A stretch of 64,000 nt of DNA from an uncultured bacterium (lineage in GTDB: Bacteria > Verrucomicrobiota > Kiritimatiellia > RFP12 > UBA1067). Location of the stretch: assembly GCA_902780865.1 (NCBI GenBank), contig CACZHC010000001.1:3554-67553 (forward strand), written 5' to 3'. Each line of letters begins with the position of its first letter. Position 1 is the stretch's first letter. The notes beneath the pieces were generated by a model. That model ran no database searches, was not told the origin of the DNA, and worked only from the letters and a program-made list of their open reading frames with translations. Made by a program: the position numbers and the translations under genes. Of this stretch, positions 9,201-57,667 are shown in pieces.

Positions 9201-9622
9201 CGGGTTCCATCGCTGGATATGCATATGCGACGAAGGACGGCGCGATATGCGCTACGCCCGGAACGGTGCTGTCGTTCGGTGACAAGCTTGCAGTTGGCGA
9301 AGGCGGTTCGCTGTGCGTCGCTGCAACAAGCGACGTAGTTGGAACATTTGCGCTCACATCCGCTGAAGGCGCCGTATATCTCGGCGAGAACGCATATCTT
9401 AGCTTTGACCTTCGTGGCGGAACGCTCGGCGCGCTCGCCGGCGAGCATGTTATTGTCGATTTGCCTGCTGGGGCTAAGGTCGAGGGAGAGTTTGCGAACT
9501 TCGTCAATGGCAAGTACACGGACGACAACGGAAACAAGTATGTCGTGAACTATGCGGGCGGCGACGGCAATGATATCGTGCTTTCCGCCCGCGGAAGCGG
9601 CTTTGCCATTTTCGTGCGATGA
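6272..9622 (+). CDS. Large secreted autotransporter-associated beta-strand repeat (PATR) protein; ends ..GSGFAIFVR
   Basis: Signal peptide. NLTWVGGSEGDWNTATNWDPQQVP N-terminus. Repeated units of the form GTLTLSAANTFTGTAFVHDGTLLLTGSLAGS..VDGGVLEGSGSI, characteristic of PATR repeats. Confidence 0.65.
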   Translation: MNKQALAILAMAVVVGASAANLTWVGGSEGDWNTATNWDPQQVPTNNDTVFFDSAQNITVNLGATQIFATLSVSNTPCLKFVGAASGSEIQVQQDSKWTLYAPVVFDENTYVKFLAGKVWTNNSTIDFLGGVGANNSTPTLGGTGLYKVRGPVDFPSGVNLAAPIDWGPSSVTAETVYNVNSCDWQFNAAPTVEGHLVRFSGGTGGPGGSAPLTFKSSDDTRPSAGINQYANPNLYLRRTMPTVFEDWFALCLGNACNNNKVGFTLGSGANLWIPADITTANNREYSSESPTGGFKLAFKGCGANVRLTGDNSFQGGGAAMDLICENGCGYNSVEIDGDGDTIHPFGEATSSLYSNTGHGVFIKALTSGKTLANGFSYGNSVNNNNAYTFGFDGTNDLTVSGDFTLGTAYSMIPVIGDMTLTLTGTLNPQNRNFDFAGIGDVVLGPMSQYTGSTGTLVKHSAGSLTLQGALVGTSYNTAYFSGGKTILDYTQNAASRLNTANSANLETPVALADALRLRGTELILKGGSVSETVGEGNGTTFQNGLTKIRRDGGMSTIYLGTLSPAPTGAQAYTAAMSYEGGVAQVAPSQAGALLGGNHMVGDHFAKTDADGFIVVAADNETSDITTITGSQTTGRLVNNLFVIEPTEDGQALTLNSATAPFVANWNGMIFRGPHDFTVTGGQFGGTATWNHSLIFNHVGTGVFTINSELYRNGFTKIGPGTVRITGTSTLGQSLNLYEGVFEVASATGFSPSSKGNYVVYLNGGTLKTSVDVTLERPLSVGDNGGVIDVVANTTFTQSGNTVTTADNTSGPVVKRGGGTWLPSGDFQAQSELRIEEGTVRLGSTKGIGDASSRTRAIAPTKILADGTLDVAGFAARLGNVYLDGGRIVDTSEGGSLGAYTFFATSGTVDAVLSDGAHQNGSCYFNATNLKKDGPGTLTLSAANTFTGTAFVHDGTLLLTGSLAGSAYVDGGVLEGSGSIAGYAYATKDGAICATPGTVLSFGDKLAVGEGGSLCVAATSDVVGTFALTSAEGAVYLGENAYLSFDLRGGTLGALAGEHVIVDLPAGAKVEGEFANFVNGKYTDDNGNKYVVNYAGGDGNDIVLSARGSGFAIFVR

Positions 9623-18542: not shown

Positions 18543-21023
18543 ATGCACGGAACAAATCTACACGTTGGCGTCAAGGCGTTGCTGGTGGGATGCGCCATGT
18601 TTGCGGTTTTCCATCCAGTCACAGTCGAAGGCGCGGGTGCGAAGGGCCTCTACCAGGCCATATATGCGGGAGAGAACGTGACGACGGGCGATCCGGCGGC
18701 GGACGGCGTTGTCATTCCTGAGGGCGCGCTTCTTCTGGCGGTACAGTCGGGGAATCCGTCCATCTCGGCGACGTCCGGCGGCACGACCTACACGGTCGGC
18801 CCGAACACGACGGTCGCCTACAAGGGCGTCATGCGTCTGACGGCGGGAACGACCTACACCTTCGCCAAGAATTATGACGACTCCGGCAGTGTCAGTCTCA
18901 CGGCGCCGGGCGGCGCGAAGACGGAAGTCCTCAGGTCCACGGCATGGAACGAGGTCAAGTATGGTTCCTATACGGCGGCTGGGTCGGGCTGGTACGGGAT
19001 CGAGGTTCGGTTCGGCAACGGCAGCGGCGGCGTCGGCCCTACGACTGCTCCGTTCAACGCAGCGCCGTACGCCTCTCTTCTGTGGAACGACACTGGGCTC
19101 GCGTCCTGCACGGCGGAGAACCGCGCGTCGTGGCACCGCCTCGTGAACGACGTGACCGAGGGCGACTATCTCTACACGGAGATTCCGGTCCGCGGCATAT
19201 CCGCCGTGTACACATGCGACGGAGGGAACTTGACGGCTTCTCTGACGCTGGAATCGGGCGACACCTGCGACCTTTACGTCTGCTACGGCGCGCAGAACGG
19301 CGGCGACACGACCAACGGCTGGGATCATGTCGTCAAGGTGGGGACGGTTACCGCGGATGAGACATCCGCTACGGACACCTCGGTCTCCGGAATCGGGACT
19401 ACGGTCAGTTACGTCCGCTATGCCACATACAGCGCGGCGGCGGATGAATTCAGCTTCTCGAACGGCTATGGCGAGCCCGTCCTGTCCGATGCGCACATTT
19501 CCGCGGACGGCAACACGTTGAGGGTGCAGGCGACTCTCGCGCTCGCCGGTCTCGGCGGATCTGGCGCGACGACGGTCGAGATATACCTCGGCACTTCGCA
19601 GGACGAAATGGCGCGTGTCTATGCGTTCAATCCCGTGTCCGTGAGCGGAACGGCGCTTCAGCACGACATCACGGGGCTTGTCTTTGGCGCGATGTACTAC
19701 TGCCGTCTGCGCGCCTGGAGCGAAGACGGCGGCGTGCTGTACGAAACAACAACGGACGCGATGAAGGTGCTGATATCCGGCACGATGGTCTGGAACGGCG
19801 CGGGGACGGACTGGAACTCCGCTTCGTCCTGGGATGGAGGCGCATATCCCGTTGCCGGTCTGTCGGCGCAGTTCCCGTCGGCCGGCGGACGCGTCGAGGC
19901 AGCGGCGGACGGAGCGGCGGACGCGCTCAGCGTCGCGACGGACACGCCAATCACCTTCGCCTTCGGCGATCACGCGCTCACGCTGGACAAGACGGAGTTC
20001 GCGACGGAAAAGAAATCCGATGTCACGCTCGAGTCCGGAACTTTCGACTTCGGCGTGTTTTCCTACGTGAAGAAGACGGAGGACAATCTGCTCACCGTGA
20101 AGAAGGACGCCGCGCTGACGCTGCCCGCAGCCATGGCCGTGCAGACATGCCGGAACAAGTGGGTGATCGACGGCGGCCGTTTGACGACAACGGGCACGTT
20201 CTCCCTGTCAACGCGTTCGGGAAGCAACGGGAACAGCACAGACGGCTCCAGCGTTACGCTCCAGAACAGGGCGGTCTGGCAGGCTGCGGCGATCAAGTGC
20301 GGCTGCTGGCACAACGCAAAGATCGCGGTGCTGTCCGGCTCGACGCTGACGGCCGGAAGCGTCACGATATCCAACGACCAGGATTCTGGCAGCGGCAACG
20401 GAATGATCGTCAGCAACGCTACGGCAACGGTATCCGGTCTCGCGGTCTGTTCTGATGACCGGCATGGAAGTTCATATCTGCGACTCTACCAGGATGAAGG
20501 TCAGACGGCGTCGCTGACGGTGACGGGGAGCATGAGCGTCTCGTCGGAGGGGAATGGCTGCCGCCATGGAAGGAACAACCGCGTCGACCTCGCGGGCGGC
20601 ACGCTGACTGTCGGCGACAGCCTGCGCGTGAGCTCGAATCCGAACAATCCCCTTACGGGGCAGACCAACGTCGTGTCCATCTCGCGTGCATCGTCGCGTT
20701 TTGCCGTGACGAAGAAGGTGTCGTTCCAGCGCGACACGAAAGTTGCATTCACCGTTCCGGCCGAGGGCTATGCGGCCGAAGCCGTCTTCACCGCGGGCAC
20801 TACGATGGTATTCTCCGAACAGGCGAGCGTTACCGTAGACGCGACGGCTGTGCGGAAGTCGATGAACATTAAGCTCCTCAAGGCGGGGACTGCACTTTCC
20901 GGACTGACGGCAGAACGTGTGGCTGTTACGGCCCGTCCCAAATGGACGAGCAAAGTGAAGATTGATGAAACTTCGCTTGTGGTTCACGTTGGAGCCCCTG
21001 GTTTTAGCATAGTCGTGCGCTGA
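18543..21023 (+). CDS. Large secreted surface protein with an N-terminal PA14-like domain and beta-rich repeats; ends ..GAPGFSIVVR
   Basis: Signal peptide. GLYQAIYAGENV...GWYGIEVRFGNGSGG resembles a PA14 domain. Thr/Ser/Gly-rich beta repeats. Shares the C-terminal hydrophobic-Arg tail family. Confidence 0.5.
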   Translation: MHGTNLHVGVKALLVGCAMFAVFHPVTVEGAGAKGLYQAIYAGENVTTGDPAADGVVIPEGALLLAVQSGNPSISATSGGTTYTVGPNTTVAYKGVMRLTAGTTYTFAKNYDDSGSVSLTAPGGAKTEVLRSTAWNEVKYGSYTAAGSGWYGIEVRFGNGSGGVGPTTAPFNAAPYASLLWNDTGLASCTAENRASWHRLVNDVTEGDYLYTEIPVRGISAVYTCDGGNLTASLTLESGDTCDLYVCYGAQNGGDTTNGWDHVVKVGTVTADETSATDTSVSGIGTTVSYVRYATYSAAADEFSFSNGYGEPVLSDAHISADGNTLRVQATLALAGLGGSGATTVEIYLGTSQDEMARVYAFNPVSVSGTALQHDITGLVFGAMYYCRLRAWSEDGGVLYETTTDAMKVLISGTMVWNGAGTDWNSASSWDGGAYPVAGLSAQFPSAGGRVEAAADGAADALSVATDTPITFAFGDHALTLDKTEFATEKKSDVTLESGTFDFGVFSYVKKTEDNLLTVKKDAALTLPAAMAVQTCRNKWVIDGGRLTTTGTFSLSTRSGSNGNSTDGSSVTLQNRAVWQAAAIKCGCWHNAKIAVLSGSTLTAGSVTISNDQDSGSGNGMIVSNATATVSGLAVCSDDRHGSSYLRLYQDEGQTASLTVTGSMSVSSEGNGCRHGRNNRVDLAGGTLTVGDSLRVSSNPNNPLTGQTNVVSISRASSRFAVTKKVSFQRDTKVAFTVPAEGYAAEAVFTAGTTMVFSEQASVTVDATAVRKSMNIKLLKAGTALSGLTAERVAVTARPKWTSKVKIDETSLVVHVGAPGFSIVVR

Positions 21024-29400: not shown

Positions 29401-31574
29401 CTGCGGCACAGACCTCCACAACCACGCTGAATGGCCCTGGCTTCACGCTCTCCGCCATCGTCAACTCGCAGCAGATCGCCAACAACGGCCGTTGCCGCGT
29501 GATCGCCTTCGGAAACGAATACAACGACAGGGCCAACTTCGCGGTCGGCTCCGACAAGATCTACTGCATGGGATCCAACTCCCACAACAAGACCAATCCG
29601 AAGGGCGCGACGGGCTGGGTCTACGCCGCGGACGTCTTCAACTCGCCGTATTCGAAGATCTACGCCGACGGCGTCTGCCTTTCCGCCAGCAACGAGGGCA
29701 ACCCCAACCTCGCTAGCCTCACGCTCGACAAGGGCATCGGCCTCGGCTGCTTTACGGGCGGCAAACAGTGCCTCGACGGCTACCTCGACGAGGCGCGCAT
29801 CCGCAACGCGGCTTCGACCGCCGACTGGATCGCGGCCGAATACCACGCGATGGCGGACGCCGGAGCGATATCCTTCTCCTCCGTTTCCTCGTCCGACATA
29901 TCGGCTCCCGTTCTCGGGATACCGTCCGTCGAGAGTAACCCCGACGGCTCGTTCACTGTTTCCGTCGAAGTGTCCGAAAATACGCCGGCTTCGATTGTCT
30001 GCATAGTCGGAGGAACCGACTACGCGATGACAACCGCGGACGCGTCTCTCCCGACGACGTATTCCGCCATGGTTTCCGGCCTTGCGCCCGGCACCTATGT
30101 TGCGTCCGTCCATGCGACGGCAACGAGCGGAACGGTTGTTTCCTCGACCTGCCCGACAGCGTTCCATGTTGGTTCGCTGACAATCGTCAAGCAGTCCGAC
30201 GCCGACGAAGGCACGATTGCGCCCGGAGTCTTCCGCGTTTCGCGCCTTGACGCCGATTCCACGGGCCTGCCCGCCGTGACGTTCGACGTTGCGTTTTCCG
30301 GAAGCGGACTTGCCGCGATCGCCGCCCCCGGCATTTCGACCGCCACGATTCCCGCGGGCGCGGCGTATGTCGAGATCGCTGTGACGCCTGTTCCCACGGA
30401 CGAAGTGGATGAAGACAGCGAACTTGTCCTGACGGTTTCTGGTGCGCAGATCGGGCAGCAGTCGACCGGAACGCTGACCGTTGTGGACGCGGGGTTTGAC
30501 CTCGCGGTTCGCTATGTCTCCACGGATGGCAACGACGCCAACTCCGGCGGCACACCAGAGGCGGCCAAGAAGACGATAGCTGCTGCCGTCGCCGCCGTCA
30601 ATCCGGTTGCGCCGTCACGGCCCTGCACAGTCCATGTCGCGACTGGTCTCTATCCAATCACGAAACCGATCGTCGTAACGAACGCGATCGCCATTCTCGG
30701 TGACAATCCGGATCCGTCGCGCGTCGTCGTGTCGAACACCGTCATTGGAGGTTGGGGTGCGATGAACCGGATTTTCACGATCGACCATGCCGGCGCTTTT
30801 GTGGCGAACCTCACGATGCAGAATGGCAATGTGAACGGTTCTGATCATGGTGGAAACTTCAATGTCGGTTCTGCCGGCGGTATCGTGTCCAATTGCGTCG
30901 TCGAGGCCGGCAAAAGCAATGGAAACCTGTACGGGGCGGGAGCACGGCTTTCAGGTGGCCTCGTCACGCATACAGTCTTCCGCAAGAACAACTGCGGATC
31001 GGGCATGGGTAATTGGCAGGGACAGCATGGTGGCGTTCTGGAGCTTTATGGCTCGTCCCGCGCGGAGAACTGCCTCTTCGTCGACAATCCTCCGTCCGGG
31101 ACGGTCTACCTCTCTCTGATCGGCGATTCTGCCGTCATGCGCAACTGCACGATTGCCGACACGGGTCTTTCGAAGACGAACGAATACTGCAAGGTATTCA
31201 CCGCGATCCGCATCAACTCTTCGAAAGCGACGGTTCTCAACACCGTGATCGCCGGCGTGACGAACAAGATTGACGGCGCGGCTTGTCCGCCGACGGGGTC
31301 GGGCGTTGCGAATTTCCTGAACGGCGCGTTCGACGGCGATGTGACGGGGCTGCCCGAAGGCACCGTTACCGGAACGGCGGCGGAGTTCTTCAAGGACTAT
31401 GAGAACGGCGACTACACGCCGAGCTTCTCCGGCCCACTTGCAAATGTGGGCGATGAGTATGAGGGAATGGCCGCGGTTGATCTTGCCGGAAAGAAGCGCA
31501 AGGCCGGCAATCACATTGACATCGGCTGCTACGAGTGCCAGAAGGAGAAGGGCTTCTTTATACTTCTTCGATAA
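26484..31574 (+). CDS. Giant (1696 aa) secreted multidomain protein: LamG-like domains, two DUF2341-like modules, Fn3-like regions, and a C-terminal right-handed beta-helix ending DIGCYE..KGFFILLR
   Basis: Signal peptide. LamG signatures CIDDLRIHAAALT, LDELRLHAAAESADWV, LDEARIRNAASTADWI. Two DUF2341-like modules (NFPVLVKLAAG..GADIRFASPDGTVLPHEIDTWNTNGESLVWVKIP and LPFLLRISEGG..LEILDADGHLLPFEIDTWNTDGESLVWVLLP). Beta-helix region (..TVHVATGLYPITKPIV..NCTIADTG..) with terminal HIDIGCYEC. Confidence 0.7.
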   Translation: MKNCHRHAARALCSVAGMLFAASAFAADDADVTGLVPTVFMDFEASSLANKGSASASFKDEGTKKYSSGANGGYALDTSSFTPYTSSSGSFSTAGEPITVSAVMTLGTNTNGITLNVRSAAGDLIIRRGADTGSLVIGFGSQGAVSTAVLNATFADGDAAWHLVSVVAGSTGTGLYVDGVLVGSTTDTTLWSPTGVLSDMQFGSHFGGLKTGDVKNGGCIDDLRIHAAALTTVQMTAIAVEYGIVVPEGHIAVRASGEPTVGKNTFSTTWSLDIAPDDRAEAALVYGSDAALSTPTTNALGSALSAGDYTASLAGLSPGTTYWWKIVASNGVNRAETDTASFRTLDEIVPTDYASRIPAAISGYAGTDTLTNFPVLVKLAAGQPAGFDYADCAEDGADIRFASPDGTVLPHEIDTWNTNGESLVWVKIPAIAGTATAFAMYYAAPDPARLPPVDPHDVWTAAGHRAVWHFAADATESAQGLVASTVTGTPSYENDGAVGKCWQSAGAAWLQYANDASWSRLGPDSTLTISVWAKFDSSSYGYNRILSAMSSWENPAGYELTVQNNKNQITVGSSGKSQYQKVVSPGPSDEMVYLTAVYNADTYADLYVNGVLQEHKQLNPLVWPTEAMTVACVAGGGNVWNGKLDELRLHAAAESADWVKACYDTMAAPTSFVALSPAESTDPDLPRFGAVSASDANGVATFTVPLTEPGYGGEVPTAVSVFYGTDGETWTELSLGSTNEAATLTVSASGFAVGVRYLWYAVATATSGGTPKTTVSQPQSFVARAFDPTGDYKSFTATVVWDGAPAENLPFLLRISEGGINGFDYDDVTASGLEILDADGHLLPFEIDTWNTDGESLVWVLLPVYENGATVTVRYGAPFANAPIPATNVWAAYVAVWHMNEILVDADSGNHYTPDSSASGWHAYKSDEADTVLSPVTTAPGASAHPTPLTGTAMNIAYGAGKSSSSLGGFRVPAAQTSTTTLNGPGFTLSAIVNSQQIANNGRCRVIAFGNEYNDRANFAVGSDKIYCMGSNSHNKTNPKGATGWVYAADVFNSPYSKIYADGVCLSASNEGNPNLASLTLDKGIGLGCFTGGKQCLDGYLDEARIRNAASTADWIAAEYHAMADAGAISFSSVSSSDISAPVLGIPSVESNPDGSFTVSVEVSENTPASIVCIVGGTDYAMTTADASLPTTYSAMVSGLAPGTYVASVHATATSGTVVSSTCPTAFHVGSLTIVKQSDADEGTIAPGVFRVSRLDADSTGLPAVTFDVAFSGSGLAAIAAPGISTATIPAGAAYVEIAVTPVPTDEVDEDSELVLTVSGAQIGQQSTGTLTVVDAGFDLAVRYVSTDGNDANSGGTPEAAKKTIAAAVAAVNPVAPSRPCTVHVATGLYPITKPIVVTNAIAILGDNPDPSRVVVSNTVIGGWGAMNRIFTIDHAGAFVANLTMQNGNVNGSDHGGNFNVGSAGGIVSNCVVEAGKSNGNLYGAGARLSGGLVTHTVFRKNNCGSGMGNWQGQHGGVLELYGSSRAENCLFVDNPPSGTVYLSLIGDSAVMRNCTIADTGLSKTNEYCKVFTAIRINSSKATVLNTVIAGVTNKIDGAACPPTGSGVANFLNGAFDGDVTGLPEGTVTGTAAEFFKDYENGDYTPSFSGPLANVGDEYEGMAAVDLAGKKRKAGNHIDIGCYECQKEKGFFILLR

Positions 31575-31632: not shown

Positions 31633-31642
31633 CGCGTCGCCA

Positions 31643-36453: not shown

Positions 36454-38745
36454 ATGACCAAAGGTTGCAGCAGTATAGACCGCGGCAAATCTGCCGCGGA
36501 TAAGAGTGTACATCTTATGCTGGCATTCCGCCTTTCGGCTCTTGCCATCTTTGCCGCCGCGGCGTATGTTGCGATCGCTGCCGAGATTCCAAATGCGGAC
36601 GTGGTCAATCCTGTCAATCTCGTTTCGACAGTCGGCGGCTCGGCGTCCAGCGACACAAAATGCCTAAACAGCGACAATCAATATGGGGTTACGAGGGCGT
36701 TCGATGGCGTTAACAACACTGACACGGATAACCGCTGGATTGGGCACGGTAGCACTTTCCCGCAGCGAGCCGTATGGACTTTCCCTTCAGCTACTGTTGT
36801 GGATGCCTTTCGCATTTACAACGCCTCATATAACGGAGCTTATCAATCGCCTTCGACATTCACGTTTGCGGGTGCGAACGATGACGAAAAGTGGAAAATT
36901 CTTGACTCTGAGAGCTCGATTACGGGCTGGTCTGCCGGCTCATACCGGACATTTAGCTTTACCAACCGTACACCCTACAAGAAGTATCGGCTCGAGATCA
37001 CTGCGGTTCAAGACATGACAAGTTCAAATGGGAAGCGGCTGTCGATTAGGGAAATTGAGCTATATCGACTTAAGGCAGTTACTTTTGGTGTTGAGCCATC
37101 TGGCTCGCCAACTATTGGACATAATTCGTTCTCGACGTATTGGACGCTTATTGCAGCAGGTGGCGCGACGGCAGATGCAGGCATTGTGTGGAGCGCCGAC
37201 GAGACGTTAGCGACTGCCGTAACCAATTCGCTCGGCACCAGCCTTTCAGGCGGAATATATACCGCGACGCTCTCGAACTTAGAGCCAGAAACGAAGTACT
37301 GGTGGAAAATCTTCGCGACAAACGCGACCGATTCTGCCGATACTGAGGTTGCTTCGTTTAAGACAAGCGGTGCGCCTGTTATCGGTAGTTGCACACGCAC
37401 GGTAGATGGTAATGCCGTTACATTCTCCATTGCCCTTGACGAGGTGGCTCTGGGGAACACGCTGATCACGTCGGTTTCGGTCTTCTACGGAAGCGACGGC
37501 GAGAACTGGACGGAGCTTTCGCTCGGTTCAACTTCAGCGGCAGCGACTTGGGTCGAGACGGTTGAGAATCTAGATTGGGGGACAACTTATCAGTGGTTTG
37601 TTGGTGCTTCGGCTACGATGGAGGGTGGCCGTATGCTTTCGACTTCTTCTGCGACCAACTCCTTTACTACGCTCTACAACGGCGATATGTATGTCGACGC
37701 CGCGGCAGAAAACGCAACGCCACCTTATTCCACGTCTGCGACCGCCGCCAAGACCATCGCCGCCGCGTTGGCACTCGCCGCCGCCGGCGCGACGATTCAC
37801 GTCGCCGAAGGCCTGTATAAAATTTCGAACCCGCTGAGCGTGACGTCTGCCGTTCGCATTCTCGGCGATGATCCGGACCCTTCGCGGGTGGTTGTCTCCA
37901 ATACTGTGAAGGCAAACTACCAGAACGGAAATCGGCGTGTCTTTATTCTCAATCATGCCGATGCATTCGTGGCGAATCTGACCATGAAGAATGGCTCGGC
38001 ATGGGGCGACTGGACAGCGGGCGGCAATCTCTACATCAACACCAACGGCGGCACGGTCTCCAACTGTGTGCTGGAGGCCGGGTTGCTTGTTTCGGGACAT
38101 GGCAACGGTGGAGGTGCAACATTGGAGGCGGGATTGATCACGCACTCCACAATTTGCAAGAGTTCCTCGGAGAAGGGATCGACCAAGGAGGGAAAGAACA
38201 AGGCGGTAGCGCTTTACCTGAAAGGTGCATCCCGTGCCGAAAACTGCCTCATCGCTAATCATCATCCTGCAACATCTTTAACTATTGCAAAACTCGACGG
38301 CACAGCAATCATGCGGAACTGCTCAATTGTCGATGGCTCTCTCACGGCAACGAGCGAGTGGTGCACGGTGCGGTCTCCGCTCGTCATCGGTGCCAACGCC
38401 ACAGTGCAGAATGTTGTTGTTGCAGGCATCACGAATACTGTTGACAATATCCCGTGTCTTCCTACCGGAACTCGGTCAAATTTCGTCAATGGCGCGGTCG
38501 AAGGGGATATAACTGGAACCTCATTCCCCGAAGGCACCGTTACCGGCACGGCATCGTCGTTCTTCAAGGACTACGCGAACGGCAACTACACGCCGAAGGC
38601 GGGCGGGCCGCTCGTCGGGAATGGCGAGAACTACGAGGGCATGGCGTCTGTCGACCTAGCGGGCAATCCGCGCAAAATAGGCAGCAAGATCGACATCGGC
38701 TGCTACGAGGCGAGCTCTTCGGCGTTAGTTATAATCGTGCGCTGA
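36454..38745 (+). CDS. Secreted F5/8-type C (discoidin) domain + Fn3-like + right-handed beta-helix protein; ends KIDIGCYEASSSALVIIVR
   Basis: Discoidin-like segment RAFDGVNNTDTDNRWIGHGSTFPQRAVWTFPSATVVDAFRIYNAS..YKKYRLEIT. Fn3-like TYWTLIAAGGATADAGIVWSAD..TKYWWKIFATN. Beta-helix ATIHVAEGLYKISNPLSVTSAVRILGDDPDPSRVVVSN. GGAGGA RBS before the ATG at 36454; alternative start at MLAFRL (36517). Confidence 0.65.
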   Translation: MTKGCSSIDRGKSAADKSVHLMLAFRLSALAIFAAAAYVAIAAEIPNADVVNPVNLVSTVGGSASSDTKCLNSDNQYGVTRAFDGVNNTDTDNRWIGHGSTFPQRAVWTFPSATVVDAFRIYNASYNGAYQSPSTFTFAGANDDEKWKILDSESSITGWSAGSYRTFSFTNRTPYKKYRLEITAVQDMTSSNGKRLSIREIELYRLKAVTFGVEPSGSPTIGHNSFSTYWTLIAAGGATADAGIVWSADETLATAVTNSLGTSLSGGIYTATLSNLEPETKYWWKIFATNATDSADTEVASFKTSGAPVIGSCTRTVDGNAVTFSIALDEVALGNTLITSVSVFYGSDGENWTELSLGSTSAAATWVETVENLDWGTTYQWFVGASATMEGGRMLSTSSATNSFTTLYNGDMYVDAAAENATPPYSTSATAAKTIAAALALAAAGATIHVAEGLYKISNPLSVTSAVRILGDDPDPSRVVVSNTVKANYQNGNRRVFILNHADAFVANLTMKNGSAWGDWTAGGNLYINTNGGTVSNCVLEAGLLVSGHGNGGGATLEAGLITHSTICKSSSEKGSTKEGKNKAVALYLKGASRAENCLIANHHPATSLTIAKLDGTAIMRNCSIVDGSLTATSEWCTVRSPLVIGANATVQNVVVAGITNTVDNIPCLPTGTRSNFVNGAVEGDITGTSFPEGTVTGTASSFFKDYANGNYTPKAGGPLVGNGENYEGMASVDLAGNPRKIGSKIDIGCYEASSSALVIIVR

Positions 38746-38886
38746 CGGAAGTTGTGGCGGGTGCCTCGACCGGAAGGCCACGATAATCCAGACCGACCGC
38801 CCAAGGAGCTGATAGAGTATCTAGCCGAGAAGGGCTGCCGTAACATGGGCTGAAGTCGTCCGCCCTCCCGCACCCCGGAGCGACAC

Positions 38887-38929
38887 TACACTTCCGTGTA
38901 TTGCCGACCCGCGGCGTATCTGGTAGAAT
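38887..38929 (+). promoter_or_regulatory. Promoter box copy 4: TACAC-TTCC-GTGTA / TTGCCG-N18-TGGTAGAAT; ATG at 38939 lies 9 nt after the -10 (leaderless)
   Basis: Read from sequence. Confidence 0.6.
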
Positions 38930-40585: not shown

Positions 40586-43234
40586 ATGAATAGGCGAATG
40601 CTACCTGCGATTTTCTGCGCCGTTGCCGTGCTCTGCTTGATTTCCACCGCGCGCGCGACGGTGCTTGTGTATGAGGGGTTCCATCCGGAGGACTACAATA
40701 ATGTTGCGGCTGGCGGCAATGTGACGGCAAGCGACTGCACGCTTACCGGAAACAATACCACTGGCGTTACCTATGGTTCTACGGCGGCCAACAAGTGGAA
40801 CGGGATGGGTGGTACGCAAATCAAGGTCTATGGTGAAAACTATGGGCTTGCGCTTCCATCCGTGATGACGGGCGCCGGATTTACCGCGCATGGCGGGTCG
40901 ATCGGGACCAACCCTGAAGGCAACGATAGCCAGTTACGCGCCATGCGGCATGCCCTTGCGTCGGAAGTCCTTAAAGTTTCAGAAGGAAAGCTCTATGTCC
41001 GGATGCTCCTCAACATTGACTCCAAAGCCGCAGGCAAACTATCGTCTAATGATGCTCTTTCAGATGCCAGCGGCGGCTATTACGGCTTCGGCCTCTGCAC
41101 GGTTCCCGGCAGTAACAACTACAATCTGCTGATCAAGACGAAGGCCGCTCTGGCGTTTGCGATTTGGAAGAATAATTCAGGGCAGTGCAATATCTCGTTC
41201 ACGCACACAACCGCAGGGGAGGCAACTGTGACATCGTATCCGATTCTCACCGATATCACGCTTGGAAGCACCTATATCTGCTATGCGGAAATCAATGTGG
41301 GCGGCGGCACAGACGGAAAGGAAATCATCCGCGCAGGAGCGGTCAAGTCCGATGATTTTGCTGGCACCATTGCGTGGGCGAAGCTCAACGGGGAAAACGA
41401 AACCATAGAAACAGAGCTCATAACCGAATCTTCATTCCCCAATACGATGGCGGTCGCCGGTCCCTACGGGTCGAACGGCGGCTATTTCCGTGCGGACGAG
41501 CTTGTGGTCGGGACGGAACTTGGGGACATTCTGCCTGCGGGCGGCGTGTTTGCGGTGTCTGCAACTGGAACACCAACCATAGGGCAGACGTCGTTTTCGA
41601 CGGACTGGATCCTCGTTGCCGATGATGGCGTGACGGCGGATGCTGGTATTGTCTATTCAACGGACGAGACGTTCGTTACTGCAATGACGAACTCGCTTGG
41701 AACGGGGCTTCCCGCCGGCACGCGCACGGCGACGCTTTCAAATCTCGACCCCGCCACGACCTACTGGTGGAAGATCTATGCAGACAACGGGATGGAGGTT
41801 GCTGAAACGACGCCGGCCTCGTTCACCACGATAGGGGCGCCCATTTTCGGCGACGCGACAGCGACTATGACCGGTGATTCCGCTACGTATTCCGTCACGC
41901 TTGCGGAGGCTGCGCTGGAGAACACTCTTTCCACGTCTGTCGCTGTGTTCTACGGAACTGACGGCGAAAACTGGACGGAGCTTCCGCTCGGCTCGGCTTC
42001 GACGGCTGAGACATTTTCGGAAAGCGCAGACAGCCTCGGATATGGCGTGACATACCAATGGTTCGCGCGAGCTTCGGCGACAATGGTGGGTGGACGCGTC
42101 CTCTCGACGACGACCGCGACCAACTCTTTCACGGCACTCTGGAACGGCGATATGTACGTCGATGCCGCGGCAGAAAACGCAACGCCGCCTTATTCTACGC
42201 CTGCGACTGCCGCCAAGACTATCGCCGCTGCGCTTTCCCTCGCCACCGACGGCGCAACGATCCATGTCGCCGAAGGTCTCTATAAAATCTCGAATCCGTT
42301 GAATGTGACGTCTGCCGTTCGTGTTCTCGGTGACGATCCGGACCCTTCTCGCACTGTAATCTCCAATGTGACGGGTGCTGGTTATAACAATGGCAACCAC
42401 CGGGTGCTGTATTTGAACAACGCAGGTTCGGTCGCCGCCAACTTGACGCTGAAAAACGGAAGCTCCTGGGGGCGGACTTCGTCTGGATGTGGTTTTGCCA
42501 TCGGCACAAGCGGGGGAATTGTTTCGAACTGTGTTGTTGAAGCTGGGTTGACGGCGGGAAACCAGGCCATGGCAGGCGGGGCGCAGTTGGAAGGCGGGTG
42601 CGTGACCCATACTGTCTTCCGGAAATGCAAGGTTGGCAGTGATACTACATCCAACAAAAATGCCGGGATGAGCTACGAGCCTGGCGTTCTTCGGCTCACA
42701 AAATATTCCAAAGCGGAGAACTGCCTCTTCGTCAACAACACGCAGGATGCAAGCAAGGCACTCACGCTGATTCGGCTTGAGGACAACGCAATTTTGCGTA
42801 ATTGCACAATCGTCGATTCGGGATTAGGCAACACCAATCAGTACTGCGCCGTATTTACGCCGGTGTATCTCACCTCTGCGAACGCGACGGTCCAGAACGT
42901 CATTGTAGCCGGCGTGACGAATCGAATCGACGGTGCACTGTGCCGTCCGGCTTGGGGACGTCCGGCGAATTTTCTCAACGGAGCCACTGATGCCGATATT
43001 TCCGGTCTTAACTTCCCTGAAGGCACCGTCAACGGGACTGCGACGGAGTTCTTCAAGGGCTATGCCAACGGAGACTACACCCCGGCGTCGGGAGGACCGC
43101 TCTACAACGCAGGCGCGAACTACGAGGGCATGGCGTCCGTCGATCTCGCGGGCAACAAGCGTCTGGTTGGCAGCAGAATCGACATCGGCTGCTACGAGGC
43201 GAGATCCTCCGCGCTCATCATGATCGTCCGCTGA
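40586..43234 (+). CDS. Secreted N-terminal-domain + Fn3-like + right-handed beta-helix protein, paralog of 36454; ends RIDIGCYEARSSALIMIVR
   Basis: Signal peptide MNRRMLPAIFCAVAVLCLISTARA. Fn3-like and beta-helix segments are near-identical to 36454 (..LWNGDMYVDAAAENATPPYSTPATAAKTIAAAL..ATIHVAEGLYKISNPLNVTSAVRVLGDDPDPSR..). Confidence 0.65.
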   Translation: MNRRMLPAIFCAVAVLCLISTARATVLVYEGFHPEDYNNVAAGGNVTASDCTLTGNNTTGVTYGSTAANKWNGMGGTQIKVYGENYGLALPSVMTGAGFTAHGGSIGTNPEGNDSQLRAMRHALASEVLKVSEGKLYVRMLLNIDSKAAGKLSSNDALSDASGGYYGFGLCTVPGSNNYNLLIKTKAALAFAIWKNNSGQCNISFTHTTAGEATVTSYPILTDITLGSTYICYAEINVGGGTDGKEIIRAGAVKSDDFAGTIAWAKLNGENETIETELITESSFPNTMAVAGPYGSNGGYFRADELVVGTELGDILPAGGVFAVSATGTPTIGQTSFSTDWILVADDGVTADAGIVYSTDETFVTAMTNSLGTGLPAGTRTATLSNLDPATTYWWKIYADNGMEVAETTPASFTTIGAPIFGDATATMTGDSATYSVTLAEAALENTLSTSVAVFYGTDGENWTELPLGSASTAETFSESADSLGYGVTYQWFARASATMVGGRVLSTTTATNSFTALWNGDMYVDAAAENATPPYSTPATAAKTIAAALSLATDGATIHVAEGLYKISNPLNVTSAVRVLGDDPDPSRTVISNVTGAGYNNGNHRVLYLNNAGSVAANLTLKNGSSWGRTSSGCGFAIGTSGGIVSNCVVEAGLTAGNQAMAGGAQLEGGCVTHTVFRKCKVGSDTTSNKNAGMSYEPGVLRLTKYSKAENCLFVNNTQDASKALTLIRLEDNAILRNCTIVDSGLGNTNQYCAVFTPVYLTSANATVQNVIVAGVTNRIDGALCRPAWGRPANFLNGATDADISGLNFPEGTVNGTATEFFKGYANGDYTPASGGPLYNAGANYEGMASVDLAGNKRLVGSRIDIGCYEARSSALIMIVR

Positions 43235-43385: not shown

Positions 43386-45782
43386 ATGAACAGACAGATT
43401 CTGCCTGCGATTCTTTGTGTTGTTGCCACGGTGTGCAACGCGACAACGTACTATGTATCTACAACCGGCAACGACGCGAACGACGGTTTGTCGGTCTCGG
43501 CCGCGAAGGCGACAATCGCTTCGGCACTTGCTGCGTTAAAGGCGCTTCCCGATGGCGGCGGTGAGAGGATCGTCTATGTATGCGATGGAGACTACGAGTT
43601 TGATTCAGGAACGGACATTGCGGCTACGGTTGACTTTCCTGTTTTAGTGACGTCGCTTTCCAGAGATGCGTCGAAGGCGCGCATCACGCGGACTGGATCT
43701 TCGAAGCGGATCTTCCAGCTCGACTGTGCGGATGCGGTCGTCTCGCATCTGACGATCTACGGCGGGAATTTGCTGGAAGGCGGGGCGGCGTACATTACCG
43801 CTAACGGAGGGACGCTTTCGGACTGTGTCGTGTCCAATTGTGCGAATTCCGCGTATAATTCGCATGGCGCGGTATATGTAAATGCAGGACGCGTTGCACG
43901 TTGTGTATTTAAGAAGAATGCGTACACTGTCGGATCGGGTCTTTATGCCAAGGGGGGAGTCGTGGAGTCGTGCCTGTTCACTGGGAACACGTGCGGCGGT
44001 GGTGGAGCGGTCTACATCGATGGGAAAGCCTACCTTGTGAACTGCACAATAGCGGCGAACACAGGCTCGTCGTGCTCTGGCGTCAAGATGAACAATGCCA
44101 ATGGACGGGCGGTCAACTGCGCGATATTCAACAACACCGCGCCTGACTCGGCCACTGGGAAGGTCTTCAGCTCCAACGGCTCGTGTTTCGTGAACTGCGC
44201 GGCGGACCTTGAAATCACTGACGGAACAGGATGCCTCTGCGTCCAGCCGGCTTTTCGCGATTCCGCGAACGGCGACTGGCGTCTCACGCCGGCGTCGCCG
44301 CTGATAGACGCTGGAATCGACGTGGCCGAGTACGGCGCTACTTCTACGAAGGACCTTGGCGGTTATACGCGCGTTGTCTCGGCTTCGGTAGACATTGGGT
44401 GCTACGAGAATCCCAAGAGCGACGTCGAATGCGGTTTCGTGTTTGCAAGTTCAGGATATCTCGTCCCGACCGAGATCAAGTTCACAGGCGTGGCGTTCGG
44501 CTTTGCCGAAACGCCTGACTTTACGTGGGAAGTGACAAGGGCTGGCACGGGAGAGACAGATTATCTGTACAATGCGACGCCGATATGGGAGGCTTCCACC
44601 CCAGGCGTCTATTCCGTCCGCTTAACTGTGTCAGGGGGAGGCAATTCTGCCGTGTACGAACAGGCATCCTGCATCAAGCTTGCTCCTTCCGACATGTATA
44701 CGAGCCCTGGCAACGAGTCAGCGGCGTATCCGTACTCCACATCTGCTACGGCGGCGCCTGATATCGCTACGGCAGTTGCCGCAGCGGTTGACGGGACGAC
44801 GATACATGTTCTCAAAGGCGCTGATGGAATCTATCCGCAGTCCGCGACAATCAAAGTCGAGAAAGGGGTGCGCATCGTCGGCGAGACGGACGATCCGAAC
44901 GACATAGTCTGCACGAACCTGGTAGTGAACACGGACGGCCACGGAATCTTCCTGCTCAACCACCCCGACGCCTTCGTGGCCGGACTGACCATGGCGAACG
45001 GATCGCTTCGCGCAAACAACGCCTACGGCGGATGCCTGCGCATCAAGCCGAACGGCGGGGCTGTTTCAAACTGCGTGATACGCTCCGGACAGTCGCAGCA
45101 TTTTGCCAGCCCTGGTGCGGGTGCGTATCTTGAGGCAGGCGTCGTCACGCACACTCGCTTCACGGGGCGTTTCACGAGCTGTCCGCAGTACAACGCTGAT
45201 CCTTCGTCCGCCGGCGTCGTCGCGCACCTTACCGGCGGTCGCCTCGAGAACTGCCTGTTCCACGACATCGAGATCGTGCCGGGGGTTGACGGAACGTCGT
45301 GCGGCCCCATGGTTTCAGTAAGGGGCGGCATGATGCTCAACTGTACCGTCGTCGGACGCTGCCAGTGTGTCGGCACGGGAAACAGTACGGACGGGATCTT
45401 CCTGAAGTACGACGGCGGTTCCGGAATCTACTGCAGCGGTTCCGGCTGGGTGAAGAACTGCGTGTCCACCTGCGTCACGAACATGAACGGCATCGTCACT
45501 CCGTTCACCGGCACGGCGTCGCGCTTCGTGAACTGCGCGGGAGACGGGGGATCCATCTGGGGCGGGACGAATTGCCTGAATGGCGAGCCAGGATCGTTTT
45601 TCAGAGATTTCGCTCGCCGAAACTACACGCCGAATGCGAACGGCCCGCTCATGGACGCAGGCATAGAATACGATGGCATGGCAGCAACAGACCTTGACGG
45701 AAAGCCGCGCAAGGTTGGGAAGTGCGTTGACATTGGCTGCTACGAAGCCCCACTAAGGGGATTCAGGCTTAAAGTGCGTTAA
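43386..45782 (+). CDS. Secreted protein with two right-handed parallel beta-helix domains; ends CVDIGCYEAPLRGFRLKVR
   Basis: Signal peptide. TTYYVSTTGNDANDGLSVSAAKATIASAL and a second YPYSTSATAAPDIATAVAAAVDGTTIHVLKG module. Repeated NCxx/beta-helix rungs (SNCANS, VNCTIA, VNCAIFNN, FVNCAAD). Confidence 0.6.
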   Translation: MNRQILPAILCVVATVCNATTYYVSTTGNDANDGLSVSAAKATIASALAALKALPDGGGERIVYVCDGDYEFDSGTDIAATVDFPVLVTSLSRDASKARITRTGSSKRIFQLDCADAVVSHLTIYGGNLLEGGAAYITANGGTLSDCVVSNCANSAYNSHGAVYVNAGRVARCVFKKNAYTVGSGLYAKGGVVESCLFTGNTCGGGGAVYIDGKAYLVNCTIAANTGSSCSGVKMNNANGRAVNCAIFNNTAPDSATGKVFSSNGSCFVNCAADLEITDGTGCLCVQPAFRDSANGDWRLTPASPLIDAGIDVAEYGATSTKDLGGYTRVVSASVDIGCYENPKSDVECGFVFASSGYLVPTEIKFTGVAFGFAETPDFTWEVTRAGTGETDYLYNATPIWEASTPGVYSVRLTVSGGGNSAVYEQASCIKLAPSDMYTSPGNESAAYPYSTSATAAPDIATAVAAAVDGTTIHVLKGADGIYPQSATIKVEKGVRIVGETDDPNDIVCTNLVVNTDGHGIFLLNHPDAFVAGLTMANGSLRANNAYGGCLRIKPNGGAVSNCVIRSGQSQHFASPGAGAYLEAGVVTHTRFTGRFTSCPQYNADPSSAGVVAHLTGGRLENCLFHDIEIVPGVDGTSCGPMVSVRGGMMLNCTVVGRCQCVGTGNSTDGIFLKYDGGSGIYCSGSGWVKNCVSTCVTNMNGIVTPFTGTASRFVNCAGDGGSIWGGTNCLNGEPGSFFRDFARRNYTPNANGPLMDAGIEYDGMAATDLDGKPRKVGKCVDIGCYEAPLRGFRLKVR

Positions 45783-51410: not shown

Positions 51411-53765
51411 ATGTCTACCGATGTTGTCCGTTCTGGCAAGTATCTGAACTGTAGTTTTGCTGCGGCGCTTTGCGCGGCATTTTTGCTGGCTTCGTCCGCT
51501 GCACGAGCGGCGGATCCGGACATCACCGGCCTTGTGCCGACGATCTGGTGGGACTTCGAAACCCAGCCCAGCGCCTCGGAACTCAAAGGCGCGAACAGGG
51601 GCTCGGCGTCCATCTCGTTCACGGGCGAGGGGACCAAAACGTATTCGGCAGGTGCGATCAGCGGCACATACGCCCTCGATGCGTCGCATTACACGCCGTA
51701 TTCGAAGGCGAGCACTTGTTCGACGGCGGGGAATCCCTTTACCGTTTCCGCGGTGATGACTCTTGGCACGAATCCAAACGGCATCACGCTGAACGTCCGC
51801 ACGACCGCCGGCGACCTGATCATCCGCCGCGGCGCGGACGCGGGTTCGCTCGTCATCGGCTGGGGCAAGCAGGAGGCGGATTCGTCCCACTTTCTCAACG
51901 CAACTCTTTCCGGGGGAGATTCCGCCTATCACCTCGTCTCCGTCATCGGCTCGTCGGCGGGCACTGAACTCTACGTTGACGGCACGCTTGCCGCTTCCTC
52001 GACGGAATTTACCCCGTGGAGCTCATCGGGCAAGGTGGAGCAGATGCAGTTTGGTTCGCACCTGGGCGCCATCCATACGGGCGAGGCGAGGCTCGGCGGC
52101 TGCATCGACGACCTGCGCATCCACGATGCGGCGCTCACGCCAGCGCAGATGAGGGCGATCGCCGTTGAATACGGACTCTCCGCGTTTTCCGACGGATTAA
52201 TAGTGTCTGGCACGCCGGGCTACTGGGGAACCGTCATCCCCGCCTACGGCGTCACGTCTGGGCTTTCGCAGGGCGGTCAAGTAGCGTGCTCTGCGCTCGG
52301 CGTGGAGACGGAGACGACAAAGACCGTCCCGATTGGCTACTCGCTTTATTCGGTCGCGTCTGACGGTGTGCAGACCCTTGTCGATGAAAGCACCTTGACG
52401 TCCTTTACCTACACGCACGGATCGGACGCAGGGCATCTTGTCTGGCACTGGGTGCAGTCAAATCTTGTGAGCGTGACCGCCGGACAGTACGGAGCCGTCA
52501 CGCCAGGCGGCTGGGTCGGATCCGGAGAAACGCTTACGGTGACGGCCACTCCGTATGGTGGATATAAATTCCTGCGATGGACGGGAGACACGGCAGGTAT
52601 CGACGCCACGTCTGCCACGGTTGTCCTGCCTCCTGTTACCAAGCCAGTTTCGCTCGTCGCCGAATTCCTGGACGAAAATACCGACGAAACGGTGCAGTAT
52701 GTCTCGCCTGACGGAGACGATGCAGACACCGGCTATTCCAAAGACCATGCGAGGAAGACGATCGCCGCCGCGGTGGCCACGCTCGACATTCACGCGCAAA
52801 CGCGGTCATGCACGGTCCATGTCGCGCCGGGACTGTACAAGATTTCTTCTCCTATTGACGTTTCGAGTGCAATCAGCGTCATTGGCGATGATCCTGATCC
52901 ATCGCGCGTCGTCGTGTCCAACCTGCATCAGGCCGGCTGGGCGCAAAACTTCCGCGTCTTCACGATCAACCACCCGGACGCCCTCGTCGCGAACCTTACG
53001 ATGCAGAAGGGATCGGTTGGCGGCGACTGGACCCAGGGGGCAAACTTCTATATCGGCGAGGCGGGCGGCACCGTGTCCAACTGCGTGGTCGAGGCGGGCG
53101 AACAGCGGACGAATCATGCCGGCGGCGGCGGTGCCACCCTGGATGCAGGCCTCGTGACGCACACGGTGTTCCGCAAAAACAAGGCGCCCAACTCCTCGCC
53201 TTACAGCGACGGCAGTGGAAACAGGGCCGCTGTTCTGTGCCTCAGGAAAAGCAGCCGGGCGGAAAACTGCCTGCTCGTCGACAACCCGCAGTCCTCGGCT
53301 GTTGTTCTGGTCTGGATGGGCGACAACGCCATCATGCGAAACTGCACCATTGCCGACTCCAGCTTGTCCAAGACCTCCGACGTCTGCCGAGCCTTCTCGT
53401 CGATCCGGATTAACTCGTCGAACGCCTCGGTCGTCAACACCGTGATCGCCGGCGTGACGAACACAATCGACGGCGCGGCATGTCCGCCTACGGGTTCAGT
53501 CACGAAGTTCCTGAACGGCGCGTTCGACGGCGATGCGACGGGACTGCCCGTCGGAACGGTGACTGGCACGGCGGCTACATTCTTCAAAGACTATGGAAGC
53601 GGTGACTATCGCCCGAAGACAGGTGGAGTGCTTGTCAACAAGGGACAAAATTACGAGCCGACACCAGCGAAAGATCTTGGCGGAAACAAGCGCCTTATAG
53701 GCAGCAAGATTGACATCGGCTGCTACGAAGCCAACGCCGCCGAACTCTGCATTCGTCTGCGATAA
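51411..53765 (+). CDS. Secreted LamG + Big/Fn-like + right-handed beta-helix protein, N-terminal paralog of 26484; ends KIDIGCYEANAAELCIRLR
   Basis: ADPDITGLVPTIWWDFE..GITLNVRTTAGDLIIRRGADAGSLVIGWG is ~80% identical to the 26484 N-terminus. LamG motif CIDDLRIHDAALTPAQMRAI. Beta-helix TVHVAPGLYKISSPIDVSSAISVIGDDPDPSRVVVSN. Confidence 0.65.
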   Translation: MSTDVVRSGKYLNCSFAAALCAAFLLASSAARAADPDITGLVPTIWWDFETQPSASELKGANRGSASISFTGEGTKTYSAGAISGTYALDASHYTPYSKASTCSTAGNPFTVSAVMTLGTNPNGITLNVRTTAGDLIIRRGADAGSLVIGWGKQEADSSHFLNATLSGGDSAYHLVSVIGSSAGTELYVDGTLAASSTEFTPWSSSGKVEQMQFGSHLGAIHTGEARLGGCIDDLRIHDAALTPAQMRAIAVEYGLSAFSDGLIVSGTPGYWGTVIPAYGVTSGLSQGGQVACSALGVETETTKTVPIGYSLYSVASDGVQTLVDESTLTSFTYTHGSDAGHLVWHWVQSNLVSVTAGQYGAVTPGGWVGSGETLTVTATPYGGYKFLRWTGDTAGIDATSATVVLPPVTKPVSLVAEFLDENTDETVQYVSPDGDDADTGYSKDHARKTIAAAVATLDIHAQTRSCTVHVAPGLYKISSPIDVSSAISVIGDDPDPSRVVVSNLHQAGWAQNFRVFTINHPDALVANLTMQKGSVGGDWTQGANFYIGEAGGTVSNCVVEAGEQRTNHAGGGGATLDAGLVTHTVFRKNKAPNSSPYSDGSGNRAAVLCLRKSSRAENCLLVDNPQSSAVVLVWMGDNAIMRNCTIADSSLSKTSDVCRAFSSIRINSSNASVVNTVIAGVTNTIDGAACPPTGSVTKFLNGAFDGDATGLPVGTVTGTAATFFKDYGSGDYRPKTGGVLVNKGQNYEPTPAKDLGGNKRLIGSKIDIGCYEANAAELCIRLR

Positions 53766-57660: not shown

Positions 57661-57667
57661 TTACGTC

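Follow-up and report, generated by a model that had tools for sequence, protein, structure and literature searches.

A Short C-Terminal Tail on Eight Proteins of One Locus

Why do eight proteins of unlike architecture, encoded in one locus, all end in a similar run of seven residues? The locus lies in a 64-kb stretch of DNA (64,000 nucleotides, hereafter the window) from an uncultured bacterium of the Kiritimatiellia (assembly GCA_902780865.1, contig CACZHC010000001.1). A preliminary description, made from the sequence alone, had noticed this C-terminal tail and had regarded it as a candidate sorting or anchoring signal. Here, we explored this issue in the window, in related loci and in metagenome clusters. 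We found that the tail is a real, position-specific motif of exported proteins that is selected at the protein level and restricted to a bacterial lineage. We propose that it serves as a localisation tag, which may act as a donated beta-strand on an outer-membrane or outer-membrane-associated partner, and we give this reading a probability of roughly 0.45.

All eight genes end in the tails that had been listed for them. They are on the + strand, within a long + strand gene run, and the G+C content of the window is ~61%. The tail GLAVFIR (4283..4303, in the context ..KGLAVFIR) closes gene 2000/2108-4306, whose product (family 3) has an unnamed terminal domain and no Pfam or NCBIfam domain. GFAIFVR (9599..9619; ..GSGFAIFVR) follows the PATR, or autotransporter-associated beta-strand, repeats (PF12951, TIGR02601) of gene 6272-9622, and GFSIVVR (21000..21020; ..APGFSIVVR) follows another unnamed terminal domain (family 4) in gene 18543-21023. 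The other five proteins terminate in a right-handed beta-helix whose last motif is IDIGCYE. Among them, gene 26484-31574 encodes three LamG domains, DUF2341 and a terminal DIGCYE beta-helix and ends in GFFILLR (31551..31571; ..KGFFILLR). Gene 36454-38745, the locus of the original observation, encodes an F5/8 type C domain and a beta-helix with a choice-of-anchor Q end, followed by ALVIIVR (38722..38742; ..SSALVIIVR). ALIMIVR (43211..43231; ..SSALIMIVR) stands after the beta-helix and choice-of-anchor Q end of gene 40586-43234, GFRLKVR (45759..45779; ..RGFRLKVR) after the two choice-of-anchor Q domains of gene 43386-45782, and ELCIRLR (53742..53762; ..AELCIRLR) after the LamG domain, InlB B-repeat and choice-of-anchor Q end of gene 51411-53765.

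The choice-of-anchor Q model NF041518 matched 43386-45782 with 46.7 bits (cut-off 25). Three IDIGCYE proteins scored just below this cut-off, at 20-24 bits (24.0 bits for 40586-43234), and 26484-31574 gave no match, yet it carries IDIGCYE. The domains found upstream by Pfam and NCBIfam were LamG, DUF2341, F5/8 type C, fibronectin type III-like and InlB B-repeat, and no model in either collection covered the tail in any of the eight proteins. Their overall pattern is G/A-Φ-x-Φ-x-Φ-R, where Φ is a hydrophobic residue. The 5-6 hydrophobic residues that had been ascribed to every tail are present in six; GFRLKVR and ELCIRLR alternate instead, the former with hydrophobics at −2, −4 and −6. Orthologues of 26484-31574, in which 12 residues follow CYE, end in GFFILLR, GFFIVVR or GFFILVR, and the orthologue of 51411-53765 in locus L008 ends in AAEFCIRVR. 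A plausible type I signal peptide was found at the N-terminus of all eight proteins. This supports export; the surface location that had been assigned to these proteins was not itself an observation.

Enrichment of the Tail and Controls

We calculated how often such endings arise by chance. Among 256 long stop-to-stop segments in the six frames of the window, 10 ended in Φ-x-Φ-x-Φ-R$, and eight of the 10 were the tail genes. For a larger sample, species-representative genomes were scanned with the choice-of-anchor Q-plus-tail module, which gave 76 loci (~1 Mb). These came mostly from rumen and gut metagenome-assembled genomes (MAGs) labelled Kiritimatiellae/Kiritimatiellia, with some labelled Lentisphaerae or Verrucomicrobia; a few loci bear the names of unrelated gut genera and are probably mis-binned contigs. 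A stricter seven-residue pattern, [GAPS][LFTIMV][VILMFACT][ILVFM]x[VILFM][RK]$, ended 47 of the 508 complete open reading frames (ORFs) in these loci. The expectation from composition was 1.7 × 10−4 per protein and the internal rate was 8.9 × 10−5 per position; the motif at the C-terminus is ~500 times above the composition prediction.

When the ORFs of non-gene frames were used as a control, 2 of 2,896 matched, and both proved to be real tail genes missed by crude gene calling; 55 of the 568 called genes in the same DNA matched. TGA, TAA and TAG all serve as stops after the tail, sometimes in duplicate (two genes have double stops), and the terminal Arg is encoded by all six codons. The downstream in-frame sequence showed no extension and no hydrophobic or transmembrane-like segment. 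Except in one paralogue pair, the DNA sequences of the tails and their flanks are dissimilar among genes. The off-frame control, the mixed stops, the six Arg codons and the dissimilar tail DNA indicate that the motif is selected at the protein level and is not an artefact of high GC content, genetic code or DNA repeats.

Three specific sources of error can thus be set aside. High-GC composition, which the preliminary description had named as a possible cause, is excluded by the six-frame, seven-residue and off-frame results. An alternative code or readthrough that hides a transmembrane segment is excluded by the mixed stops, the two double stops and the absence of a hydrophobic downstream frame, and a DNA repeat or mobile element as the source of the tail by the differing tail DNA and flanks. 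Random ORFs in the window DNA end in Arg more often than in any other residue (53/256), which would favour an artefact of composition or annotation, whether through high GC, a non-standard genetic code or a repeat in the DNA that provides the stop. This explanation is already refuted by the lack of any true match among 2,894 off-frame ORFs, the varied stops and the unlike tail DNA.

Conservation in the Choice-of-Anchor Q Family

Is the tail conserved where its family is best represented? The same C-terminal module was found in 85 of 86 homologues of the last 199 aa of 36454-38745, and nearly all of the 85 end in five hydrophobic residues and R; the final residue is K in some of them and H or Q in a few. 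A logo of 105 distinct choice-of-anchor Q tails showed G/A/P at −7, L/F/T at −6, a hydrophobic residue at −5, I/L/V at −4 (96 of 105), a hydrophobic residue with R tolerated at −3, and V/I/L at −2. The last residue was R in 84 tails, K in 16 and another residue in 5, and the distance from the E of CYE to the C-terminus was always 11 or 12 residues. An exhaustive hidden Markov model search of 1.84 billion cluster representatives gave 16,565 clusters at E ≤ 1 × 10−3 and 1,051 at E ≤ 1 × 10−30. A tail-like ending, Φ-x-Φ-x-Φ-[RKQ], was present in 132 of the 148 best representatives (mutual identity ≤50%), with G at −7 in 98 and with R (109), K (18) or Q (5) as last residue. Signal-peptide-like N-termini were found in 113 of the 129 representatives that start with Met. 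The only named cluster member was a 'LamG domain-containing protein [Kiritimatiellae bacterium]'.

In the resulting consensus, a small or polar linker of 4-5 residues stands ahead of −7. Hydrophobic residues are strict at −2, −4 and −6, and positions −3 and −5 are mostly hydrophobic and tolerate R, K, S and T. Six to seven residues in an extended form correspond to ~20 Å. Lineage flavours were also seen: MAGs like that of the window use [FL] at −6 and a terminal R, and several other MAGs use G-T-Φ4-[KR]. In one MAG, the latter flavour also ends one protein outside the choice-of-anchor Q family. A flavour common to different families within one MAG fits co-evolution with a single reader or common receptor.

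In about 5% of tails that are typical in other respects, the final residue is Q, H, N or L (GFFILVQ, LMIIVH, GTILILN; representatives P0014, P0032, P0029, P0045, P0110, P0119, P0139, P0165 and P0240, and loci L016, L027 and L042), so the last residue is preferentially, not obligatorily, basic.

Other endings occur in related proteins. In MAGs labelled Verrucomicrobiota, large secreted proteins share an ending close to [FY]YR[VIL]x[VL]E[LM][PR] (RKFYRVELRP, KFYLIELR, RYYSLEVEMP), which was found in the L058 genes ending at 4059, 7149 and 15251, in L070 3334-6420, and in P0167, P0179, P0194 and P0234; it may represent the final strand of some other C-terminal domain or signal. Giant beta-helix relatives of the same family (2,700-3,800 aa; representatives P0132, P0186, P0191, P0205 and P0245) end in an acidic motif, ..LFDE..EEDYDLLA.NF[IV]A or ..EDSLDLIAASLLE[RK]R.

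Modularity across Unrelated Terminal Domains

Four unrelated terminal-domain families carry the tail: the choice-of-anchor Q beta-helix, the PATR type with a 'GGDGND' end, and two unnamed domains. Kiritimatiellia homologues of the PATR type (67-93% identity) keep the tail and end in ..GGDGNDIVLSARGSGFAIFVR; in the PATR alignment (A3), it follows the conserved end 'Y.GGDGNDIVLS'. Among remote PATR homologues with a 'Y.GGDGND..L' end, P0094, P0096 and P0097 stop directly after that strand, and P0095 runs on into a PEP-CTERM signal (TIGR02595, 25.7 bits, cut-off 16). Metagenome homologues of family 3 with 95, 90, 68 and 31% identity end in KGLAVFIR, KGLAIFIR, RGTVVLFR and NTTVVMIR, respectively, and the one homologue found for family 4 (P0098, 58% identity) ends in PDGLLLLVK. 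The loci also contain carriers that do not belong to the choice-of-anchor Q family, among them LamG/DUF2341/F5/8C proteins and one 196-aa protein; all have signal peptides.

What stands at this position in other phyla? After the DIGCYE end, MAGs of Bacteroidales and Cloacimonadales have the type A sorting domain of the type IX secretion system (T9SS; TIGR04183, ~96-106 residues), and a Blastocatellia MAG has the Solibacter C-terminal domain (TIGR03437). Where DIGCYE is not terminal in other phyla, further internal domains follow. These domains at the same slot, together with the NF041518 matches, accord with the suggestion in the preliminary description that beta-helices with a DIGAYE-type end belong to a choice-of-anchor class that precedes interchangeable signals. 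Secreted proteins of the sampled Kiritimatiellia loci had neither PEP-CTERM-like C-termini nor C-termini with a transmembrane segment and a basic cluster. As judged from these alignments, the tail occupies the architectural slot of PEP-CTERM and of T9SS C-terminal domains in the homologues from other phyla. Because a known sorting signal is found at the same slot there, the tail is probably an undescribed and unusually short localisation tag.

Association with Export and Carrier Proteins

The preliminary description had predicted enrichment of the tail among signal-peptide proteins, and this was borne out. Among the ORFs of the loci, the tail was found on 51 of 206 with a heuristic signal-peptide call and on 16 of 302 without one (Fisher's test, p = 4 × 10−10). 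The 16 apparent exceptions include several missed signal peptides and several gene fragments; the rest are weak chance matches on cytoplasmic proteins, such as an HtpG-like protein ending in ..LADLMMK, and two doubtful ORFs. When the choice-of-anchor Q family was excluded, all seven strict carriers had signal peptides.

The carriers are mostly non-catalytic multidomain proteins (beta-helix, LamG, F5/8C, PKD, PATR) with no catalytic-domain match, and their lengths (mostly 250 to >2,700 aa) and domain sets are very different. The other secreted proteins of the window all lack the tail: GH16, GH5, a heparinase II/III-like lyase, a C10 peptidase, a GH127-like protein, an M14-like candidate and a CBM9 protein. 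The earlier statement that the enzymes are tail-less therefore holds for GH16, GH5, the lyase, the peptidase and the M14-like protein, and two of its assignments needed revision: the supposed S8 peptidase (31640-34183) belongs to C10 (Pfam, 4 × 10−38), and the supposed M14 gene (45849-47117) has only a weak match (E = 0.0018). From the domain content it is reasonable to regard the carriers as glycan-binding or adhesin-type proteins, and to suppose that the tail sets their cellular destination apart from that of the tail-less enzymes.

Truncated 3' modules with the choice-of-anchor Q end and tail, lacking an N-terminal part or signal peptide, were found at L084 3223-3765, L008 15581-15961 and L002 9464-10180. 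These copies may be what is left of pseudogenes, or they may serve as silent cassettes in recombination between paralogues. The first corresponds to P0022, is identical on 7 contigs and is preceded by a hairpin (GGGGACAGACCCC..GGGGTCTGTCCCC).

Structure Models

The tail might be simply the last strand of the domain before it. We explored this issue with two AlphaFold2 models, both of C-terminal fragments. For the choice-of-anchor Q fragment of 36454-38745 (199 aa, 36-sequence alignment), the predicted TM score (pTM) was 0.82 and the beta-helix had a predicted local distance difference test (pLDDT) score >90; residues 188-199 had pLDDT <50 and no secondary structure. For the PATR fragment of 6272-9622 (300 aa, pTM 0.82), the last strand was formed by residues 286-291 (DIVLSA), and the tail was coil with pLDDT ~52 dropping below 50. 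In both models the tail is unpacked and has low pLDDT, which indicates that it does not form the final strand of the neighbouring domain. Alignment A3 and the tail-less homologues agree with this result, and thus the tail is not the end of a longer known C-terminal domain, an outcome that the preliminary description had also considered. When the beta-helix model was compared with the PDB by Foldseek, the only matches were to generic beta-helices and were not significant; a profile search of the PDB sequences gave none.

Comparison with Known Sorting Systems

No description of the tail was found in the literature searched or among the NCBIfam models. The tail shows the generic hallmarks of C-terminal sorting signals (extreme end, signal peptide, many paralogues, varied architectures, lineage restriction and replacement by other anchors in homologues), but its design is not the tripartite one of the published signals, which combine a motif, a transmembrane helix and an Arg cluster and have a cognate sorting enzyme (10.1101/2023.06.07.544157).

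PEP-CTERM (TIGR02595) is similar in several respects. It stands at the extreme C-terminus of proteins that have a signal peptide and numerous paralogues in each genome; it occurs on PATR-repeat and beta-helix proteins and at the same alignment position in P0095, and its hydrophobic stretch is followed by a basic end. However, none of the eight tail proteins has PEP in its last 30 residues or matches TIGR02595, and the tail has 5-6 hydrophobic residues and a single R/K instead of a transmembrane helix and an Arg cluster. To our knowledge, all described C-terminal sorting signals have at least 20 residues or are folded domains. The T9SS C-terminal domain (TIGR04183) follows the same 'DIGCYE' end in the Bacteroidales and Cloacimonadales homologues, and the last strand of the one such domain examined (L074) ends hydrophobic-then-basic, KKIILMK; however, it is a folded domain of ~70-100 aa, whereas the tail comprises 11-12 residues after CYE and does not match TIGR04183. 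We know of no T9SS in Kiritimatiellia. GlyGly-CTERM, MYXO-CTERM, PGF-CTERM and LPXTG signals are likewise C-terminal, modular and lineage-restricted, with a Gly-containing start, hydrophobic residues and a basic end, but these tripartite signals contrast with the seven conserved residues of the tail, and the C-termini of the tail proteins have no LPXTG-like motif or transmembrane segment. Unlike classical autotransporters (type V secretion, T5aSS), the tail proteins have no barrel domain in Pfam or NCBIfam, and their last residue is R/K and not aromatic. We therefore agree with the earlier judgement that the tail is none of the autotransporter, LPXTG, PEP-CTERM or T9SS signals, since it lacks the defining features of each.

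The beta-signal of outer-membrane proteins (OMPs), read by BamA/Omp85, is a terminal beta-strand with alternating hydrophobic residues. In the tail, the alternation is shifted by one (−2, −4, −6), no beta-barrel precedes it, and it stops at the basic residue without terminal Phe or Trp. The beta-signal has Phe, Trp or Tyr as its last residue, and a lineage-specific variant with a basic residue in the penultimate position is known (PMC1634882). A FadL-family OMP (Pfam, 2.4 × 10−50; L059 3549-4940) of a tail-bearing MAG ends in GGFSVTYRF; aligned in register, this is the tail pattern with an aromatic residue added at the end. Should the OMPs of this clade typically have a basic residue in the penultimate position, the tail would look like their signature minus the terminal aromatic residue. 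Two signal-peptide proteins that are not confirmed OMPs end in ..AGLLIRW and ..TTLVRF (L024 3384-3947, − strand, and L029 17638-19482); one has no Pfam match and the other is DUF4139. More OMPs were sought on further contigs and none was found.

The donor strands of chaperone-usher and type V pili offer a comparison that is pure analogy. Like them, the tail is a short hydrophobic strand, disordered in the monomer, that could complete the fold of a partner. However, the tail proteins have no pilin fold, the terminus differs from that used in chaperone-usher pili, and no usher or chaperone genes were seen. A crosslink to peptidoglycan through a terminal Lys, as in Lpp, was set aside because Arg dominates.

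Proposed Role of the Tail and Alternatives

How might such a tail act? The tail protein would be exported by Sec, and its passage through the outer membrane would then probably depend on type II secretion. A type II secretion system has been reported in the cultured relative Kiritimatiella glycovorans (PMC5148204), and genes for the type II secretion ATPase T2SS-E are present in a tail-bearing MAG. The tail, unstructured in the monomer, would serve as a single donated beta-strand and dock by beta-augmentation onto an outer-membrane or outer-membrane-associated partner, where the terminal basic residue and free carboxylate may set the register or sit at the membrane interface. In this way, the binding proteins would stay at the cell surface and the tail-less enzymes would go elsewhere. 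The beta-strand pattern, the lineage flavours and the FadL-family OMP ending in GGFSVTYRF favour a donated strand. The localisation role is what we infer from the results above; strand donation and the nature of the partner are speculative.

Several points weigh against this proposal. The preliminary description had advised a search for a co-occurring sortase, protease or barrel gene, but neighbour clustering over the ~1 Mb of the ~76 loci brought up no such candidate. The localisation role is read from sequences and models. A lone strand resembling a beta-signal would be expected to poison BAM (the machinery for beta-barrel assembly) and not to anchor a protein. The OMP comparison consists of one confirmed OMP and two unconfirmed proteins ending in R-F or R-W. 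Because the loci were gathered through the choice-of-anchor Q-plus-tail module, the raw frequencies are biased, and the analysis without this family comprises seven carriers. Finally, the AlphaFold2 models cover fragments only, which leaves room for docking in cis onto an N-terminal domain, although such docking is made less likely by how greatly the carriers differ in architecture.

Alternatively, the tail may be the recognition site of a dedicated processing enzyme (a C-terminal processing protease, carboxypeptidase or transpeptidase), which would remove the tail or its terminal Arg/Lys, possibly with covalent attachment to lipid, lipopolysaccharide or peptidoglycan, much as a sortase would but with a minimal signal. 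The terminal basic residue and the linker of small residues (S/A/P/G) resemble a cleavage context, and the established C-terminal sorting signals are all cleaved by endopeptidases (10.1101/2023.06.07.544157). The gene for the secreted M14-like carboxypeptidase candidate comes immediately downstream of a tail gene, both in the window and in L008, and two secreted C10-like proteins are encoded at the locus, with a Pfam C10 match for 31640-34183 only. However, the M14 match is the weak one given above and its gene was found in only 4 closely related loci, and no CPBP, rhomboid, exosortase or sortase-like gene was seen in the ~1 Mb. Moreover, five hydrophobic residues cannot hold a substrate in the inner membrane, as the known intramembrane sorting enzymes require. 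We consider this explanation unlikely.

Could the tail be purely a signal for translocation across the outer membrane, which marks periplasmic intermediates for type II or an undescribed secretion system and anchors nothing? It is found on only a subset of signal-peptide proteins, and the KKIILMK end of the T9SS domain in L074 is similarly hydrophobic-then-basic; the last residues of T9SS C-terminal domains are essential for export. On the other hand, no linear signal for type II secretion is known to us, and the carriers look like binding or adhesin-type proteins, whereas the enzymes, a more usual secreted cargo, have no tail. Such a role is quite improbable on these grounds.

A structural strand with no sorting role is also quite improbable, whether it docks in cis, serves subunit swapping or oligomerisation, or acts as a mini-dockerin for a scaffold. 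The hydrophobic beta-strand character would suit it, and the tail is unpacked in models of isolated fragments from which a docking site could be missing. However, the carriers differ greatly in domain sets and length, the tail is always at the extreme C-terminus with a basic end, and homologous domains in other phyla manage without it.

It is very unlikely that the tail is a functionless remnant of a tripartite signal of the PEP-CTERM or PGF type, or a by-product of gene conversion: although some tails read P-G-F/L plus hydrophobic residues and R, the module and its 3' flank are near-identical between paralogues, and truncated 3' cassettes exist, the pattern is kept independently in four unrelated families and in representatives ≤50% identical, the tail length is fixed, and neither hydrophobic tails of intermediate length nor PEP-CTERM-like ends were found in the sampled Kiritimatiellia loci.

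DNA Elements and Neighbouring Genes

The ~76 loci resemble polysaccharide-utilisation loci. Recurrent neighbours in the ~1 Mb are GH-like enzymes, histidine kinases and response regulators, AraC/LacI-type regulators and FAD oxidoreductases.

In the window, a palindrome-containing motif, TACAC-N4-GTGTATTG, occurs in five copies upstream of + strand genes (chance expectation 0.01), at 31589-31605, 38887-38903, 43313-43329, 47131-47147 and 51328-51344, all on the + strand. The genes downstream encode the C10 peptidase, the GH127-like protein, two tail proteins and the C10-like paralogue. In the two copies that were aligned (38887 and 43313), TGGTA(G/A)AAT, which resembles an extended −10 box, follows a short way downstream. 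The motif is probably a shared operator and promoter of the locus. Long ORF calls run through it and read 'YTFVYCRLR'.

The ~50 nt right after the stops are near-identical between 38746-38800 and 43235-43290 (CGGAAG..GGTGCCTCGACC.GAAGGCCACGATAATCCAG.CCGA), and the last ~180 nt of coding sequence are also conserved between 36454-38745 and 40586-43234. These near-identical 3' ends suggest either that gene conversion has acted between the paralogues or that they share a conserved 3' element. In intergenic stretches downstream of tail genes (45783-45848, 53766-53846 and L084 ~3000-3030), tandem 'TCTACA[CT]G'-like units (CTACACGATCTACATGTTCTACACGG, CCTACACGTCCTACATGG) were found, which resemble half-sites of the TACAC palindrome.

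Two further observations concern single genes. The ORF at 57293-58516, which crude gene calling missed, matches class I fumarate hydratase (Pfam, 1 × 10−64). With the GTG given as its start it would overlap the end of the 1,260-aa CBM9 gene; translation probably begins close to 57.68 kb. A 763-aa protein is also present on metagenome contigs from sample ERR3224608.

Implications

C-terminal sorting signals such as LPXTG, PEP-CTERM and the T9SS C-terminal domain reveal how bacteria display proteins and are used in annotation and in surface-display engineering. In our view, the odds are about even that the tail is the signal of an undescribed localisation system of the Kiritimatiellia, and perhaps of neighbouring lineages of the Planctomycetes-Verrucomicrobia-Chlamydiae (PVC) group, with seven residues, no transmembrane segment, and a new receptor or enzyme. 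One candidate reader would be an outer-membrane barrel that takes the tag as an extra membrane-spanning strand. If this is so, the tail would be the shortest bacterial surface-sorting signal known and would serve at least ~1,000 protein clusters, whose members are currently annotated just as 'LamG domain-containing' or 'hypothetical'. A seven-residue tag in place of the known signals would point to a different recognition machinery in these little-studied, mostly uncultured polysaccharide degraders of the gut and rumen, and it would divide the proteins that they export into two classes, binding proteins with the tag and enzymes without it.

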